Assembly: GCA_964631835.1 (NCBI GenBank)
Contig: CAZWAD010000021.1
Span: forward strand, 271-64,270
Length of the DNA: 64,000 bases
Direction: 5' to 3'
Origin: an uncultured Chitinophaga sp.
Lineage (GTDB): Bacteria > Bacteroidota > Bacteroidia > Chitinophagales > LD1
Made by a program: the position numbers and the translations under genes. Below are positions 1-61,837 of this stretch, piece by piece. The stretch's first letter is position 1, and each line of letters begins with the position of its first letter. The notes below the pieces were generated by a model. It was not told the origin of the DNA. It worked only from the letters and a program-made list of their open reading frames with translations, and made no database searches.

Positions 1-1355
1 GGATTGGGAGAAACAACTATTGATTTATTTTCCTCTTGCTCTTTAATTCCTGTGCTTGTTGGCGGAACAACATTTACATATACCAGGGTATTGGTTGTAC
101 GCATCAGGTAATAGTTGTTGCAGAATGTATCACTGCAACCGGTTGTGTCGGCAACAATGAGGCAAATGTTGTAAAGCCCTGCTGATGCATAAGTGTGGCT
201 TGGATAAGCCGCAGTATCTGAACTGCCGTCACCCCAGTCCCAGATGTATGTAAGGGACCCCGAGCCACTTGCCATGTTTATTGCAATATAATAGTGCGGG
301 GTTGAAGTATCAGGATAAAGACTAAAATAAGCCCGGCAATTGTTTGCATAGCATTGAGAGGAATCAAGCGGCATAAAATTGACAAGCCCAAAGTTGATAT
401 TATCGTAGCCATCGTAAATTTTTGAAGAAATGATCGCGGAGTCGGTTGTGCACCAATAATTGTTGGGATATAAACCGTTACTTCCAAAAGCGACATTGTA
501 TCTCAAATTATACAAAGCATTGTTGCAAATTCTGTTACAAGTAATTTGCTCCATTACTCCTTGAATTAAAATTCCGGTCGTGTTGTTCTCGATTACGTTT
601 TGAGTTATAGTATTTTCATCACCGCTAAAATTATTATAAACAGAATCAGTTATGCCTATCATACTGTTAGTTATTGTGCAATTGGAAACATCATTTCTGG
701 TATTAAGTCTAATTCCAAGTATATTCGAATCAATTACACAATTAGTTAATGTTGCATACGCATTAGATGCTACACCGATTTGATTATTCGATATAACGCT
801 ATTAGCCATTGCAAAACCATCACCAGAATTAATTGCAACATTGTTATTCTTGAATAAACAGGAGTTAATGGTAAAGAAGATTACCGATGAGGAAATTCCC
901 GTTACATTCCGACTAAAATTCGAATTAGTAATGAAAGCAGCGGTATCTTGACCTACATTAGAGTGAATTTTAAAAGCCATATTAGCATATTGGAAGTGGC
1001 AGTAGTTAAATCGTGATTTTGTCCCTCCATTTAAATTTAGATAAATCTCGCCCCAACTTCCAGGAAGAGGTGAACCCGAATTGCTCGTAAAAGTTATGGT
1101 ATCAGTACTCGTTCCAAGTGCTACAAGTTTGGATTGCCGCATTTCCAATCTCATATCATCATCAAACTTCACCACCACCCCCGGCTCAATCGTAAGCGTA
1201 ACTCCCGGAAAAACTACAACTGTATCAGTAACAATATACGGGCTGTTAGCCTTATACCAAGTAGTGTTTGCGTATATCCCTCCGCTTACATTGGTTTGCG
1301 CTTGCAGAGCGAAGCAAAAAATCAGTAGTGCGACTGTAAGTAGTTTTGTTTTCAT
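1..1355 (-). CDS. Secreted parallel beta-helix repeat protein with PKD-like domain, probable T9SS cargo (3' end runs off the left window edge)
   Basis: Absent from the ORF track because it is edge-truncated. Hand translation from the ATG at 1355 gives MKTKLLTVALLIFCFALQAQ (signal peptide). This is followed by repeated N/I/G-rich beta-helix-like units and a PKD-like segment (YIWDWGDGSSDTAAYPSHTYASAGLYNICLIVADTTGCSDT). The frame stays open to position 1 and ends ...SIVVSPN, like the start of a T9SS sorting domain. Confidence 0.75.
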   Translation of the reverse strand, partial: MKTKLLTVALLIFCFALQAQTNVSGGIYANTTWYKANSPYIVTDTVVVFPGVTLTIEPGVVVKFDDDMRLEMRQSKLVALGTSTDTITFTSNSGSPLPGSWGEIYLNLNGGTKSRFNYCHFQYANMAFKIHSNVGQDTAAFITNSNFSRNVTGISSSVIFFTINSCLFKNNNVAINSGDGFAMANSVISNNQIGVASNAYATLTNCVIDSNILGIRLNTRNDVSNCTITNSMIGITDSVYNNFSGDENTITQNVIENNTTGILIQGVMEQITCNRICNNALYNLRYNVAFGSNGLYPNNYWCTTDSAIISSKIYDGYDNINFGLVNFMPLDSSQCYANNCRAYFSLYPDTSTPHYYIAINMASGSGSLTYIWDWGDGSSDTAAYPSHTYASAGLYNICLIVADTTGCSDTFCNNYYLMRTTNTLVYVNVVPPTSTGIKEQEENKSIVVSPN

Positions 1356-1518
1356 GGTTTGTGATTTTAGCTCCCTAAAAATAACCAACCTTTCCTAACC
1401 CTGAAAACTTTATTGCATCTGCACTGCCATAGCCTTTTCCGTAACTCCTACGCTACCGATTTTTGCTCCCGGAGTGCCTCCGCACTTTCCGTGCTTACAC
1501 TTCCCGTACTCCAACTAC

Positions 1519-1764
1519 CATTTTATAATATACAGCGGCACTTTCCGTACAGAAAGTGGCGATTTATAACGTAAAACACCACTTGGAGTACGGCAATTGT
1601 TAATCTATAACATAAAATACCGGTTTGGGTAGACAAATTCTTAATCTATAACGTAAAACAGCAGTTGCGGTAAAAAAAGTGGTATTCTATAAATTAAAAC
1701 ACCGGTTTGGGTGCCGGAACAGGCAGTATATAAAATACAAAGGCGATTGGGGAAGGTAAAGCGG
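1519..1764. repeat. Array A: 6 degenerate tandem units of exactly 41 nt (consensus about taatCTATAACGTAAAACACCGGTTTGGGTA...AAAGTGG)
   Basis: The TATAA core occurs at 1524, 1565, 1606, 1647, 1688 and 1729, a constant 41-nt spacing. The units align without indels. The array lies in the divergent intergenic region upstream of CDS 1918-2904. Confidence 0.8.
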
Positions 1765-1917
1765 CAAAAAGAATAACCGGATTGTCATGGTTTTGTCATA
1801 AAACTTAAAAAGTGTAAAAAAACGCAATATCAAATAAACCTTTTGCGTTAAGGAGTCATCAAACCGATAAAAGAAAAAAATAAATGCAGCACGGCTACTT
1901 AACCAAAACAAAGTTTT

Positions 1918-2934: not shown

Positions 2935-2965
2935 CCCCGCTTCGAGGAACGGAGCGGGGTTTTTT
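2935..2965 (+). terminator. Rho-independent terminator of CDS 1918-2904
   Basis: CCCCGCT...AGCGGGG stem followed by TTTTTT. Confidence 0.75.
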
Positions 2966-5045: not shown

Positions 5046-5057
5046 TTTTTCTGTATT

Positions 5058-5357
5058 TCAGTAAGCCCTGAATTTTGCTTTTTGTTTTTTAAGCTGACCG
5101 GCTAATGTCTGTATTGCCAGGTCGGTGCTTTCTTCAAACGTTTTTGAGGTTTTGGCTACGAAAAGTGTTTTCCCCGGGACATGAACCTTAACTTCAACAA
5201 CCTTGTCTTTCACACTCTGCTTCGATTCCATTTTCAGAAATACCTCCGCCTCAACAATACGGTCAAAAAAGGTTTCGAGTTTGGAAAGTTTTTTGTTGAT
5301 ATAATCAACAAGCTGGGATGATGCATCAAAATGCACCGGATTAATTACAACATTCAT
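5058..5357 (-). CDS. hpf: Ribosome hibernation/ribosome-associated inhibitor factor (short HPF/RaiA family)
   Basis: The ORF 5058-5420 was trimmed to the internal ATG at 5357 (MNVVINPVHFDAS...). The length is about 100 aa and the layout is S30EA/YfiA-like. The position between the Xer-like gene and the tRNA-tuf unit fits this call. Confidence 0.8.
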   Translation of the reverse strand: MNVVINPVHFDASSQLVDYINKKLSKLETFFDRIVEAEVFLKMESKQSVKDKVVEVKVHVPGKTLFVAKTSKTFEESTDLAIQTLAGQLKKQKAKFRAY

Positions 5358-5513
5358 AAAGAACAAATTTATAGGGTTAGAAAATAATTTTCGCAGTTCT
5401 AAGTTAATCAGATATTTCAAAACTATAAAGCGGGTTACGATTTTTTTTGAAAAAAGTTTTCAGAAAAAACTTTCTCATTAAATAACGAACGGAAAAGGAA
5501 AAGATTTTTCGCC

Positions 5514-6398
5514 TTAGGCTTTTGGATGCGCCTGTTTATAGATATTTTTCAATTTATCTATGGTATTGTGAGTATAAACCTGTGTAGCTGCCAGGCTTGA
5601 ATGGCCTAAAAGCTCTTTGACTGCATTTATATCTGCCCCGTTATTCATCAGGTGGGTGGCAAAAGTATGGCGCAGGGTATGGGGGCTTTTTTTATCAACG
5701 GTAGTCACCAGATTCAGATATTTCTTAACTGTAGTGTAGGCGAATGCTGCCTGAAGTTTTTTACCCTTTTCGCTTACTAACAGAAAACTTCCTTCCTGTT
5801 CCGGTACGTTTTTTTTCTTCTCAGCAATGAATTTTTTAATTGAGTTTGTCAGCTCTGTATGAATAGGAATAATACGCTCCTTACTGCCTTTCCCCAAAAC
5901 CTTTATTTGCGAGCTATAGGAATCAAAGTCGGTTTCCTTCAGGTTGATTAGTTCGCTTCTTCGTATTCCGGTTCCGTAAAAGAGTTCAATCAGCATTTTA
6001 TCGAGCAGCCCTTCGTAACCTGCCGGAAACTCAATTTCCTTCAAAAGCCTGTCAATTCCTGTTAGCTCTACAAAAACCGGTAGCCGCTTAGATGTTTTCG
6101 GAGTTTGTACTTTTGCCAAAGGGTTCTTCTTAATGTGGCCCCTGCGCAGCGAAAATTTGTAAAAAGATTTCAACGCTGATACTTTCCGGTTTACCGAGCG
6201 GGCGGTAATTTTTTGTTCCATCATGCTCACTATCCAGTTTCGGATATCAGTGTGTGTGGCTTCGCTCAGCTGTTTTTCATAAGATTTCAGGAAAGAAGCA
6301 AACTGAGAAAGGTCGTTGCGGTACGACTCCAGTGTATGACGGGAGTATCGCCTTTCAAATTCAAGGTAATTGAAAAAGGATTGGGCTTCGGGTAACAT
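5514..6398 (-). CDS. Tyrosine-type site-specific recombinase (XerC/XerD-like)
   Basis: 294 aa with an N-terminal SAM-like core-binding domain ([23 protein letters not shown]). The C-terminal catalytic residues are in typical context ([38 protein letters not shown]). Confidence 0.88.
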
Positions 6399-38390: not shown

Positions 38391-38425
38391 GACTAAGAAT
38401 TTTCAGCCAAGTTCATGAATGTTAA

Positions 38426-38463
38426 AATCCGTACTGTTGGCGTTCCCGCCAACAGTACGGATT
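38426..38463. promoter_or_regulatory. Perfect 17-bp inverted repeat with 4-nt spacer (candidate operator or hairpin)
   Basis: AATCCGTACTGTTGGCG-TTCC-CGCCAACAGTACGGATT. Located 36 nt upstream of the HTH gene start and 99 nt before array B. Confidence 0.6.
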
Positions 38464-38561
38464 ACATCTGCCTTCATTTTTGCAGCGTAATCAATACCAA
38501 ACCCAACATGCAATCAACCCGCTTCAGTTCTACCGGTACACAAATGAGCAGAGGCTCTGCT

Positions 38562-38813
38562 GAACTCCCGAGGGCTTCTGCAACACGTAACAAACCACAA
38601 CCGGAACTCCCGAGGGCTTCTGCAACGTGTAACAAACCTCAACCGGAACTCCCGAGGGCTTCTGCAACGCGTAACAAACCTCAACCGGAACTCCCGAGGG
38701 CTTCTGCAACGCGTAACAAACCCCAACCGGAACTTCCGAGGGCTTCTGCAACACGTAACAACCCCCAACCGGAACAGCGGAGGGCTTCTGTAACAGGTAA
38801 CAAACCAATTTTT
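38562..38813. repeat. Array B: 6 tandem units of exactly 42 nt (GAACTCCCGAGGGCTTCTGCAACGCGTAACAAACCTCAACCG)
   Basis: Units start at 38562, 38604, 38646, 38688, 38730 and 38772. Units 1-5 are about 90% or more identical and unit 6 is degenerate. The array ends 22 nt before the ATG at 38836. Confidence 0.92.
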
Positions 38814-38835
38814 AAACTATAAAACCCAATTTACC

Positions 38836-40105: not shown

Positions 40106-40124
40106 GCCCCAAACGGGGCTTTTT
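40106..40124 (+). terminator. Rho-independent terminator of CDS 38836-40038
   Basis: GCCCC-AAAC-GGGGC followed by TTTTT. Confidence 0.7.
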
Positions 40125-59211: not shown

Positions 59212-59262
59212 TGTTTGAAAATTGATTGGCTGAAAATAGCAATTGATTACATTCGCTTTACC

Positions 59263-60294
59263 ATGAATAAAAACCTTCAGTCAGAAAAAGCTGATTTGTC
59301 AACCGAAGAACAGGAGGTCGAAAAATCCCTCCGGCCGAAGGTGATTGATGATTTCATGGGTCAGCCGAAGGTGGTTGATAATCTTTATGTATTTATTGAA
59401 GCCGCTAAGCAACGCAGCGAATCGCTGGACCATGTGTTGCTTCACGGACCACCGGGTTTAGGCAAGACCACCCTGAGTTATATTGTTGCCAGTGAGATGA
59501 ATGTGGGCATTAAGATTACATCGGGGCCGGTGCTGGAAAAGCCCGGAGACCTTGCAGGACTGCTTACGAATCTTCAGCCGAATGATGTGTTGTTTATTGA
59601 TGAAATTCACCGGCTGTCACCGGTTGTGGAGGAATACCTCTATAGTGCTATGGAAGATTTCAAGATTGATATTATGATTGACAGCGGACCCAATGCGCGC
59701 TCAGTTCAAATCGGCCTCAATCCATTTACACTTGTTGGCGCAACCACACGCTCCGGGTTACTTACAGCACCGCTGCGCTCGCGTTTCGGCATTACTTTCC
59801 GCATGGAATATTATGATGCTGAAATTCTTAAGAATATTATCAAGCGCTCAGCAAGAATTTTAAAGGCAGAAATTAATGACGATGCGGCTTATGAAATTGC
59901 ACGGAGGAGCAGAGGAACACCGCGGATTGCGAACCTTCTTCTTCGCAGGGTGCGAGACTTTGCACAGGTAAAGGGTGACGGAACCATCAACCTGAAAATA
60001 ACCAAACACGCGCTCGAGGCGCTGAATGTTGACCTGCACGGGCTGGATGAAATGGACAACCGTATTCTTGCAGCAATTATCAATAAGTTTAAGGGAGGGC
60101 CTGTGGGTATTACGACTATTGCCACGGCAGTAGGGGAGGAAACAGGAACTTTAGAAGAGGTTTATGAGCCTTTTTTGATTAAAGAAGGGTTTATCAAGCG
60201 CACCCCGCGCGGAAGAGAGGTGACTGAACTTGCTTATAAGCACCTCGGCAAGACTCCGCCAGCAGTTGGCGGTAGTTTGTTCCAGAATGATTGA
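59263..60294 (+). CDS. ruvB: Holliday junction branch-migration helicase RuvB
   Basis: [10 protein letters not shown] Walker A and LFIDEIHRL Walker B motifs, [16 protein letters not shown]-like segment. The start was moved to the ATG at 59263. Confidence 0.95.
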
Positions 60295-60360
60295 GATTGT
60301 GGTTTTGTAAGACCTGATTCGGATGGAGCAGCTGTTTATCTGCCCCGTACAGGCTTAAAT

Positions 60361-60633
60361 TCTTGTCTGTAACTATTGATTTGTTGACTGTAACTATTAG
60401 TTTGTTGTCTGTTAGGTATGATTTGTTGTCTGTAAGCATTAAGTTGTTGTCCGGCAGATGTAAATTGTTATCTGTTAGATATGAATTGTTGTTCGTTAGA
60501 TACGTTTTGTTGTCTGTTATTATCTAATTGTTGCTCGTTAGATATAATTTGTTGGCTGTAAGTATTGATTTGTTGTCTGTAAGATGTAAGTTGTTGTCTG
60601 TAAGATTTAAATTGTTTGGTTTCAGGGTTAGTT
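60361..60633. repeat. Array C: 13 tandem units of exactly 21 nt (consensus TGTTGTCTGTAAGATNTAAKT)
   Basis: Units start at 60361 + 21k for k = 0..12 with no indels, and 11 of 13 begin TGTT. The array lies in the convergent intergenic region between ruvB and the FemAB-like gene. Confidence 0.9.
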
Positions 60634-60765
60634 TTTTTGGTTGTTTTGTAAGTTTTACTCCATAAAATGGCAGTTTTTGTGGTAAAAGCATTCATTTTTG
60701 ATAAAAAGAGGGTAAAAGCTGGACTCTATGTACCAGATTCGTGTAAAAGGGATGGGATAAATAAG

Positions 60766-60789
60766 GGGTATGTCGCAACTACCCTTTTT
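60766..60789 (+). terminator. Candidate intrinsic terminator downstream of array C
   Basis: GGGTA-(9 nt)-TACCC followed by TTTTT on the plus strand. The stem is short, and it could also serve the convergent minus-strand operon. Confidence 0.4.
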
Positions 60790-60838
60790 GGGGTTTGTAA
60801 AAATTATTGCAGAGAGAGTGGTTTTGGAATAGGCGGTT

Positions 60839-61837
60839 TTAGTTTGCCCAGCGGTAATTCATGCCAGTGGTGTTCTGTTGAACGCCTTTCAGCCGGAGAT
60901 AAATATTGAGAAGGGTTTTATAGAGTTTGTAGCGCCAGGTGATTTCGGAATAGAAATGGAAGCCTTTTTCAACGGTTGCGCCAAAGCGGATTTTAAACTT
61001 TTGGATGCCTTCATATTTGGTTCCGCTTACATCGCCTAATCGGAAGCCGCCCATGCAGTAACGCTTAATACCCTTTTGTTTCAGCAGTTTCATTACTTCA
61101 AGTTGCAAGAGTTTATTCGCACCGGGGTAGGGGCAGTCATCTACCCCGCCCGACTGATAGTAGTAAGCTTCCTGTGCGTTCCACAGCACTAAAGCTGCGC
61201 CATATACTTCGTTATCCTTTTCCACTACTGCAACCAAACAGTTCTTTTCACCAAGACTGGCTGCCATGCTACTGACTTCCCTCTCGGGGTCAAAGTAGAT
61301 ATTTTGTTTCTGGTGGGTGTGCTTATATAATTCATAAAAGACAGGGAACCGGTTGTTGCTGAAAACCACTTTCACCCCAGCGGCTAGGGCTTTTCGTATT
61401 TCATTGCGGTAGTTATCGCTGAAGGCTTTAAAAATTTCTTCTTCGCTTTTACTAAGGTCAACGGTTATAATTCCCATTTCGGTAAAGAGGCTTCCCGAAG
61501 GGACCGCCTGAAAAACAGAATAGTGAAGCGGGGGCATAATGAAGTCGCAAATGTTTTGTTGTTTACAGAATGCGAGCATTTTTTCGAGGAAAATATTTTC
61601 TTCTTCGGGGGAAAGGCGCAAGCCGTTCATAACCGGAGGGTATAAATACTGCGCCTGCTTAACCAGTTTTGCCTGCCGGGTTTTAAGGGGAATGATTGCT
61701 CCGGCTTCGTCAGCAATCAAAACCAGATTCCAGCCTTTGCTTTGCTCAAATGCTGCATAGTTTTGCTGAAAATACAAGGGGTATTTTTCTACTGCTTCGA
61801 TTTGATGGAAAGAAACAATCTTCATAGGGCAAATCAA
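60839..61837 (-). CDS. FemAB-family / GNAT-fold aminoacyl- or acyl-transferase
   Basis: 332 aa with a duplicated GNAT-like layout. EAYYYQSGG...GANKLLQLEVMKLLKQKGIKRYCMGG resembles the FemAB/lipid II peptide-bridge transferase family. Confidence 0.7.
   Translation of the reverse strand: MICPMKIVSFHQIEAVEKYPLYFQQNYAAFEQSKGWNLVLIADEAGAIIPLKTRQAKLVKQAQYLYPPVMNGLRLSPEEENIFLEKMLAFCKQQNICDFIMPPLHYSVFQAVPSGSLFTEMGIITVDLSKSEEEIFKAFSDNYRNEIRKALAAGVKVVFSNNRFPVFYELYKHTHQKQNIYFDPEREVSSMAASLGEKNCLVAVVEKDNEVYGAALVLWNAQEAYYYQSGGVDDCPYPGANKLLQLEVMKLLKQKGIKRYCMGGFRLGDVSGTKYEGIQKFKIRFGATVEKGFHFYSEITWRYKLYKTLLNIYLRLKGVQQNTTGMNYRWAN

Follow-up and report, generated by a model that had tools for sequence, protein, structure and literature searches.

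Two orphan protein families of Bacteroidota, each beside tandem repeats of its own fixed period (41 or 42 nt)

Results and Discussion

Repeat arrays and orphan genes in the window

The DNA analysed here (the window) is a 64,000-nt stretch from an uncultured Chitinophaga sp. (assembly GCA_964631835.1, contig CAZWAD010000021.1, positions 271 to 64,270 of the forward strand). Its content is Bacteroidota-like, with tuf and a tRNA cluster and with secreted PKD and beta-helix proteins. Two orphan genes in the window, called gene A and gene B, are each preceded by an intergenic tandem array, with 41-nt units at gene A (array A) and 42-nt units at gene B (array B). The features of both loci are listed in Table 1. 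In related loci across Bacteroidota the protein gene and the tandem array form a conserved two-part module, and the unit length under selection depends on the protein family.

The initial annotation had placed six 41-nt units at 1519-1764, and the period was borne out. TATAA recurs at 1524, 1565, 1606, 1647, 1688 and 1729, an exact 41-nt spacing, and the self-match at lag 41 was 64.9%, with 35.7% at the runner-up lag. In 1000 dinucleotide-preserving shuffles of the segment, the best lag gave 34.8% on average and 41.1% at most. Tandem Repeats Finder (TRF) reported 1565-1707 (period 41, 3.5 copies, 74% matches). All six TATAA registers were found, but just four units (1560-1723) are well conserved, those at 1519 and 1724 being degenerate. 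The 41-nt register reaches back to 1437, with a lag-41 match of 54% across 1420-1800. The unit at 1437 (TTCCGTAACTCCTACGC...) is similar to the unit of relatives, for example CTCCGTAACTCTTACGG in locus L001, and the two units of 1437-1518 are best read as remnants of the ancestral type of family-A unit. The 104-nt palindrome has its arms at 1497-1548 and 1549-1600 and encloses the hairpin CACTTTC-CGTACA-GAAAGTG (1539-1558); the left part of array A, including the first of the six annotated units, thus consists of inverted copies.

Array B was reported by TRF at 38562-38807 (period 42, 5.9 copies, 92% matches) and ends 23-29 nt ahead of the ATG of gene B. The palindrome at this locus lies between array B and a divergent XRE-family gene, 36 nt upstream of the XRE start codon. 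That gene had no homologue in the other ~100 loci described below and is therefore not part of the module. A repeat peptide was rejected, since the 135-aa open reading frame (ORF) running through array B (38415-38822) is a by-product of the stop-free 42-nt unit and 41 is not divisible by three. The order of an inverted repeat with CCGTAC followed by the units, which had been annotated for both loci, is shared only loosely: at locus A the CCGTAC hairpin sits within the array register, not ahead of the array.

Table 1. Features of the two loci in the window, dyad cores of related arrays and loci with short family-A genes
Feature	Position or locus	Strand	Basis or remark
Two degenerate units continuing the 41-nt register	1437-1518	+	register print-out, lag-41 match
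Imperfect palindrome of 104 nt, two 52-nt arms, 73% complementary, no gap	1497-1600		centre 1548/1549; repeat search
Array A, six 41-nt registers	1519-1764	+	TATAA spacing, TRF, lag-41 match 0.649 vs shuffle maximum 0.411
Direct repeat TTGTCAT at 1782 and 1793, 11-bp spacing	1782-1799	+	sequence, post-array alignment
Post-array block TGTAAA...GCAATATC-N13-GCGTTA	1813-1850	+	leader alignment
Family-A gene (gene A), 328 aa	1918-2904	+	no signal peptide
Intrinsic-terminator-like hairpin CCCCGC...GCGGGG with T-run, after gene A	2935-2965	+	sequence
XRE-family helix-turn-helix (HTH) gene, 74 aa	38166-38390	-	ORF list, HTH matches; diverges from array B
Perfect palindrome, 15-bp arms (TCCGTACTGTTGGCG / CGCCAACAGTACGGA), contains CCGTAC	38427-38465		sequence
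Array B, six 42-nt units, 92% alike	38562-38813	+	TRF score 387, lag-42 match 0.926
Family-B gene (gene B), 400 aa	38836-40038	+	no signal peptide
Intrinsic-terminator-like hairpin GCCCC-AAAC-GGGGC with TTTTT, after gene B	40106-40124	+	sequence
Core TCCGTAA-CTC-TTACGGA	L001, L006, L008, L018		
Core TCTGTAA-CTC-TTACAGA	L023		
Core TCTGTGG-TTT-CCACAGA	L012, L021		
Core TCTATAG-CTT-CTATAGA	L022		
Core GCTGCTGTAA-GAG-TTACAGCAGC	L019		
Core CTTACGG-AA-CCGTAAG	L041		
Core TCTGCGC-AC-GCGCAGA	L069		
Core CGCAT-GTT-ATGCG	L007		
Short-gene locus	L015, 1144-2683		
Short-gene locus	L020, 2986-6305		
Short-gene locus	L106, 4001-7474		

Gene A had been described as an orphan without signal peptide, followed by a terminator, and both points held. 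Its acidic product (isoelectric point, pI, 4.9) belongs to no Pfam, NCBIfam, PHROG or PADLOC family; the sole Pfam match, Mfa2 (E=0.009), is under the curated cut-off. In the AlphaFold model an all-helical N-domain (residues ~1-220) is joined to a jelly-roll C-domain. The family-B protein, also acidic (pI 4.7) with a basic N-terminal tail, has an N-domain with helices of 53-58 residues and then two CarboxypepD_reg (Ig-like) domains, to which its matches to known families are confined. When the two AlphaFold models (predicted local distance difference test, pLDDT, 88 for A and 92 for B) were searched with Foldseek against PDB and BFVD, only the beta domains were matched and nothing was found for the N-domains; profile searches of PDB sequences gave no match for either N-domain. 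Proteins A and B had no BLASTP similarity to each other, and their profile-profile probability was 1%. In some members of family A the N-domain of that family is joined to the CarboxypepD_reg C-terminus that typifies family B, so the architecture is shared: a helical N-domain plus an exchangeable beta C-domain. A single-linkage BLAST cluster joins proteins of both families, which we tentatively attributed to this shared C-terminus. Family A is large, with 1090 cluster representatives at 50% identity (profile search, E<=1e-3). Two of its members, P0206 (519 aa) and P0287 (422 aa), matched the family-A profile in two or three stretches, which suggests a tandem duplication of the N-domain within one protein.

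It had also been claimed that the units of arrays A and B can be aligned, and suggested that the two loci are diverged copies of one module. The alignment score was 12 against 10.7 +/- 1.9 for shuffled units (P=0.29), and either strand did no better. The loci do represent the same kind of module with the same architecture, but their common descent is not supported, since the units align no better than shuffled ones and the proteins are not detectably related. The alignment failed, whereas co-distribution of proteins and arrays was found in other genomes (see next).

The period follows the protein family

For the comparison across genomes that the initial annotation had called for, we fetched 21 family-A genome loci, four further places with family-A proteins and 80 family-B metagenome loci, and scanned the 900 nt upstream of each family gene for the best self-match lag. 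The best lag was 41 in 17 of 23 family-A loci and 42 in none of them; of 57 family-B loci, 48 had a best lag of 42 and one had 43. Arrays were present in ~80% of more than 80 loci, at protein identities down to ~30%, with ~2 to 13 copies and a within-array unit identity of 66% to 98%. The fetched loci amount to 466 kb and gave 81 TRF rows of period 41, 42 or 43; 75 of these lay upstream of a family gene, and at least three of the remaining six were also beside one.

Whole units could not be aligned between genomes while their length stayed constant. Such complete substitutional turnover without a fixed indel points to purifying selection on unit length. Because periods 41 and 42 coexist in the genome of the window, the value follows the gene family and not the host. 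The selected unit length hence depends on the protein family, and this family-specific invariance argues for a physical interaction of protein and array, or at least for a measuring factor of its own in each family. A functionless minisatellite, produced by replication slippage and kept by chance, is scarcely credible as an explanation. Homogenised units (up to 98% identity) are what unequal crossing-over predicts, and array A is degenerate (74% matches), but slippage does not account for arrays in about four fifths of the loci at an invariant period, for their place upstream of family genes in nearly all TRF rows, or for dyad arms conserved above the level of the spacers. The comparative data effectively refuted a neutral minisatellite.

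We came across no account of arrays like these in Rfam, Pfam, PADLOC or the literature covered by our searches, and the module is apparently undescribed and widespread in Bacteroidota. Neither family had relatives in plasmid, phage or IMG/VR viral-contig collections, and a mobile-element origin was rejected on this ground.

Anatomy of the repeat units

Most units among the relatives contain a short dyad-symmetric core (Table 1). Ten family-A arrays provided 53 distinct sites; counted from the centre, positions 2-7 were complementary in 72-94% of them, and two or three pair types occurred at five of the six core positions (at position 6, for example, C-G 21 vs T-A 26). Slid controls mostly gave 0-43%, with two chance registers that were high (68% and 77%). 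The dyad cores thus keep their complementarity through paired changes. Variation was 6.1% at arm positions and 10.9% in the rest of the unit and spacer. The 5' flank TGCyTC is conserved in family-A sites and has no mirror on the 3' side. Arm length ranges from 5 to 13 bp while the total unit length is constant, and in many cores the palindrome is perfect and its arms stand just 0-2 nt apart. The outer motif TCTG...CAGA is recurrent in arrays of both families. Non-complementary positions were G-T in 78 cases, A-C in 60 and other in 123, showing no G-T bias in a test whose statistical power is limited since the units are homogenised. Within units, the 10.5-bp A/T periodicity of phased A-tracts was missing (fourth harmonic not enriched; mean z -0.5 in family A and -0.13 in family B), which ruled out intrinsically curved DNA.

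In the window itself, array A retains the left arm only (TCTATAAC, compared with TCTGTAAC in other loci), and array B has only an interrupted dyad (GAAnnCCnnnGGnnTTC) with the right arm retained. Folded as RNA, neither was better than shuffles (z = -1.2 for array A; z = -0.05 for array B, in spite of its 92% homogeneity). This loss of dyad symmetry in both arrays, unlike in most relatives, is explained neither by a DNA-dimer model nor by a hairpin model.

Leaders and array position

In family A, the array typically ends 125-240 nt ahead of the ATG, with a conserved block in between. The direct repeat TTGTCAT, spaced at 11 bp and resembling a Pho box, is kept in close relatives as TTGTCATGGAATTGTCAT; this repeat and the TGTAAA...ATAATA block are common to the closer family-A relatives. 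GCGTTA, at 1845-1850 and 73 nt before the ATG in the window, recurs as GCGTTA(T) ~75 nt before the ATG in most loci. It is the sole motif invariant across 10 aligned family-A leaders and looks like a promoter or leader motif. Five close relatives had a dyad scored there, and in four of them the last dyad centre was 121.5-123.5 nt upstream of the GCGTTA motif. Close family-A relatives also have a longer palindrome straight after the last unit, mostly without a T-run, and no plus-strand hairpin with a T-run was found between array A and its gene (1764-1918).

In family A, conservation is higher in the leader past the array than in the array itself (the TTGTCAT repeat, TGTAAAAGCACATAATATC and the invariant GCGTTAT in L001, L006, L007, L009 and L010). 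A TGTAAAnCATTAT block, similar to that of the leader, stands upstream of the arrays in the GC-rich family-B loci L061, L064, L066, L069 and L073, and blocks of this type may serve an alternative sigma factor as promoter. A conserved AT-rich block that looks like a promoter occurs ~50 nt upstream of the array in GC-rich family-B loci and only in these; they also have a sigma-70-like TTGnnn-N17-ATAnnAT between array and gene. The canonical Bacteroidetes -7 box (TAnnTTTG) was found neither in the units nor between array and ATG in ~60 loci, so that tandem canonical promoters were excluded; it was also missing from the 150 nt upstream of most arrays. By eye, a matching -7 box (TATTTTTG) was seen ~45 nt before the ATG of the short-type gene in L020, which has no upstream array, and a near-match (TATTTTTA) at the short-type gene in L015. 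Some family-B leaders are made up of low-complexity AT-rich micro-repeats: CATAATT is repeated about ten times in L033, and L035 has runs of CTAATTT/ATCCTAA.

The short family-A genes encode ~240 aa, consisting of the N-domain and an acidic or proline-rich tail. In four of these loci (L015, L020, L106 and L107) the 41-nt array is downstream of the gene, and the period therefore follows the protein family and not the promoter position. In L108, also of the short type, the array is upstream. A strong intrinsic terminator separates the short gene from the downstream array in L015 and L020, the two loci read. The conserved flank and the left arm are on the gene strand both in L020 (array downstream) and in L108 (array upstream).

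Possible function of the module

Our tentative choice, to which we give somewhat less than an even chance, is that the array is a phased row of duplex-DNA sites to which the adjacent protein binds, in the manner of sopC and SopB. We infer the binding itself, DNA rather than RNA as the target, and a regulatory outcome. Array A would be the cis partner of the adjacent family-A gene, and each 41-nt unit is predicted to be one double-stranded DNA binding site made up of the conserved asymmetric flank TGCyTC and then the dyad core, ancestrally perhaps TCCGTAA-CTC-TTACGGA. Centre-to-centre distances of 41 bp (family A) and 42 bp (family B) correspond to about four helical turns, and such fixed spacing could put 5-13 sites in a defined helical register and allow the assembly of a cooperative oligomer. 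The product of the linked gene is the most economical candidate for the binder, probably via its long helical N-domain. The complex may control transcription of the gene adjoining the array, which is usually the protein's own gene and in some loci a protease-nuclease gene. Duplex DNA is favoured because the centre-to-centre distance is conserved while the arms vary from 5 to 13 bp, because many cores are perfect palindromes with hardly any spacer, because the mismatch spectrum is not RNA-like, because the homogeneous array B has no hairpin potential, and because promoter-like blocks lie between array and gene.

Several observations weigh against a protein-bound array of this kind. Both proteins are acidic (pI 4.7-4.9), their N-domains match no known DNA-binding fold, and the units of both window arrays have no clear dyad symmetry. 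Within family B the spacer between the arms ranges from 0 to 9 nt, which makes a conserved dimer unlikely. Core type is independent of protein phylogeny: L018 (36% identity to the query) and L001 (64%) share one core, L007 (64%) has another (Table 1). Among the double changes within arrays, 13 of 22 kept complementarity, as a hairpin would predict. Furthermore, 37 of 47 family-B arrays have units rich in A on the sense strand (p=6e-5).

The paired changes, the variable loop size, the A>T skew of the sense strand in family B and the two-nucleotide spacers, which we read in the A-rich orientation 14 times and in its complement 4 times, would all be expected if the array were transcribed and the repeat RNA, possibly processed to 41- or 42-nt units, bound the adjacent protein, either in the manner of a type III toxin-antitoxin (TA) system or as a scaffold or sponge. 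We regard this as the main rival, somewhat less probable than binding to duplex DNA. The layout does fit the published definition of type III loci, a tandem array, a short palindrome and a protein gene (PMC3401426); the repeat length is family-specific, as this reading would have it, and the longer palindrome directly past the last unit in close family-A relatives is in the place expected. The array may be upstream or downstream of the gene in apparently the same orientation (L020, L108), even behind a terminator (L015, L020), and the AT-rich promoter-like block upstream of the array in GC-rich family-B loci could serve its transcription. Some loci have defence-like neighbours, namely a trypsin/Endonuclease_NS gene, cas genes or toxin-antitoxin genes. 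However, G-U pairs were no commoner than A-C or other mismatches, arrays A and B fold like shuffles, and unit length is constant in spite of variable hairpin size. The proteins, of 240-400 aa and with Ig-like domains, are not ToxN-, CptN- or TenpN-like and had no match to these by PADLOC, Pfam or Foldseek. The window lacks a hairpin with T-run between array and gene, the unit length is invariant where that of type III families varies widely, there was no Rfam match, and no member of either family turned up in plasmid, phage and viral-contig collections.

Ordinary operator or activator sites for unlinked host factors would provide another explanation. Such sites would control the downstream and perhaps the divergent gene, and the linked protein would have no direct contact with them. 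The array is mostly upstream of the family gene with a promoter-like block between them, and upstream of the next gene in L020 and L106; genes for cargo of the type IX secretion system (T9SS) are frequent divergent neighbours sharing the intergenic region. The TCTG...CAGA motif in the arrays of both families, the identical core beside distant proteins and the lack of any resemblance of either protein to a nucleic-acid binder could be accommodated as well. Nevertheless, we regard unlinked operators as quite improbable. They leave the family-specific periods of 41 and 42 unexplained, including their occurrence together in this genome, and the differing cores of paralogues (L007 vs L022) would need several factors per genome. 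Moreover, the L015 array lies between convergent 3' ends, and the units have no 10.5-bp A/T periodicity.

Sequence turnover at a fixed, partner-dependent length is the pattern expected of a protein that physically measures nucleic acid. To our knowledge, such a length-locked pattern is met in bacteria only in CRISPR, type III toxin-antitoxin systems, plasmid centromeres and the like. A broader proposal, possible though doubtful, is that the modules form a new class of protein-plus-repeat-array systems in Bacteroidota with at least two unrelated orphan families. The partner protein would measure the array at 41 or 42 nt per subunit, either as a nucleoprotein filament or as a processor of unit-length RNA, and such a system would stand apart from CRISPR, type III TA and partition. 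If this is true, it may control a neighbouring protease-nuclease effector or the cell-surface genes of T9SS cargo. In any case, two large families without a known N-domain family or structural relative are now tied to an easily searchable DNA signature. Confirmation would give a handle on the function of orphan families, a new example of co-evolution of protein and array, and an annotation rule (period 41 or 42, dyad core, adjoining orphan gene) for hundreds of intergenic regions in Bacteroidota. Even if the arrays turn out to be plain groups of operators, their strict phasing at four turns would remain an exceptionally clear natural case of a helical-phase constraint.

Comparison with known systems

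The modules lack at least one defining feature of each of the known systems closest to them. The sopC site of plasmid F consists of 43-bp direct repeats, 12 in number, and SopB binds a 16-bp inverted repeat within each of them (PMC3177203). The modules resemble it in having direct repeats of constant length and ~4 helical turns, with a short inverted repeat, beside the gene of the presumed binder. An inverted repeat in each direct repeat is present in most relatives, the window units having one arm and no clear dyad. They differ from sopC in having no ParA or ParB genes, and the proteins have neither an HTH nor a ParB fold. In addition, the loci are chromosomal, may occur in several paralogous copies per genome and are absent from the plasmid collection.

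Iteron plasmids have helically phased direct repeats of ~22 bp, followed by a related longer palindrome near the rep promoter. Phased repeats, a terminal palindrome in relatives and a position beside the promoter of the adjacent gene are found in our loci too, but the units are 41-42 bp long, and there is no Rep initiator family or fold and there are no origin features. The loci were on large chromosomal contigs, adjoining tuf and ribosomal protein genes.

Type III TA loci (toxIN, cptIN, tenpIN) similarly have 2-6 or more direct repeats of 31-62 nt beside a protein gene, often with a palindrome between, and swapped gene-then-array orders occur both there and here (PMC3401426). The lengths of their repeats vary within a family (31-62 nt in toxIN, 40-48 nt in cptIN), and their short palindromic repeat is a transcriptional terminator between array and gene (PMC3401426). 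The modules differ in their proteins, which are unrelated to the ToxN-like endoribonucleases (~150-200 aa) and twice their size, in the gap between array and gene, which has no terminator in the window, in a length that is invariant per family, and in mismatches that are not RNA-like.

A known RNA family was also excluded, as only tRNAs reached the Rfam gathering score in the window; within 1350-1950 just two chance-level matches appeared up to E=1 (E 0.31 and 0.68), far below gathering. CRISPR was rejected since the units are 74-98% alike along their whole length and have no variable spacer segment. No cas genes were found near either window array, and among the loci only L015 has cas4-cas1-cas2 beside the array. 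BrickBuilt of Porphyromonas gingivalis, likewise an intergenic tandem repeat in a Bacteroidota genome, has 23-nt units in a mobile transposable element of the miniature inverted-repeat type (MITE) dispersed through the genome, with proposed promoter effects (PMC4596501). It was set aside for its 23-nt units within a MITE; unlike our arrays it lacks dyad cores and a link to any protein family.

Neighbouring genes and a third array

Beyond the family gene and the array, no conserved neighbour gene was found across ~100 loci. A trypsin-like/Endonuclease_NS (protease-nuclease) gene comes after the array in L020 and L106; the one in L020 had weak PADLOC matches to RT-Protease_XI and LmuA via the protease domain. 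In L015 two convergent 3' ends flank the array. A cas2-cas1-cas4 cluster has its 3' end 27 nt away, and the array occupies the spot at which one would look for a CRISPR array. Upstream, family-A loci often border on a gene for T9SS cargo, in many instances a divergent one (L001, L004, L011, L023, L024), so the array often sits in an intergenic region shared by divergent genes. Por_Secre_tail was confirmed at 5 of 21 distinct family-A places examined, and the truncated neighbours in L007, L021 and the window (3-1355, minus strand) are probable further cases. In L004, a family-A/CarboxypepD_reg gene lies in toxin-antitoxin-rich surroundings, between a ParE toxin gene (299-562) and a HepT/nucleotidyltransferase pair (5056-5686).

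Three intergenic arrays stood out in the 64-kb window, namely A, B and a 21/42-nt array at 60356-60616. Three further 700-nt tiles above the 50% self-match cut-off were weak (52-57%) and within long ORFs, and we read them as coding repeats. The third array has ~12 units of 21 nt (TAATTTGTTGTCTGTAAGATA), for which TRF also gave super-periods of 42 and 63 nt. No family-A or family-B gene adjoins it, just an 80-aa ORF after the array (60667-60909), and its alignment to the units of A and B was not above background. It is flanked by the 3' ends of ruvB (59215-60294, plus strand) and of a gene on the minus strand (60839-61837), and contains TCTGTAA, which is the half-site of many family-A cores.

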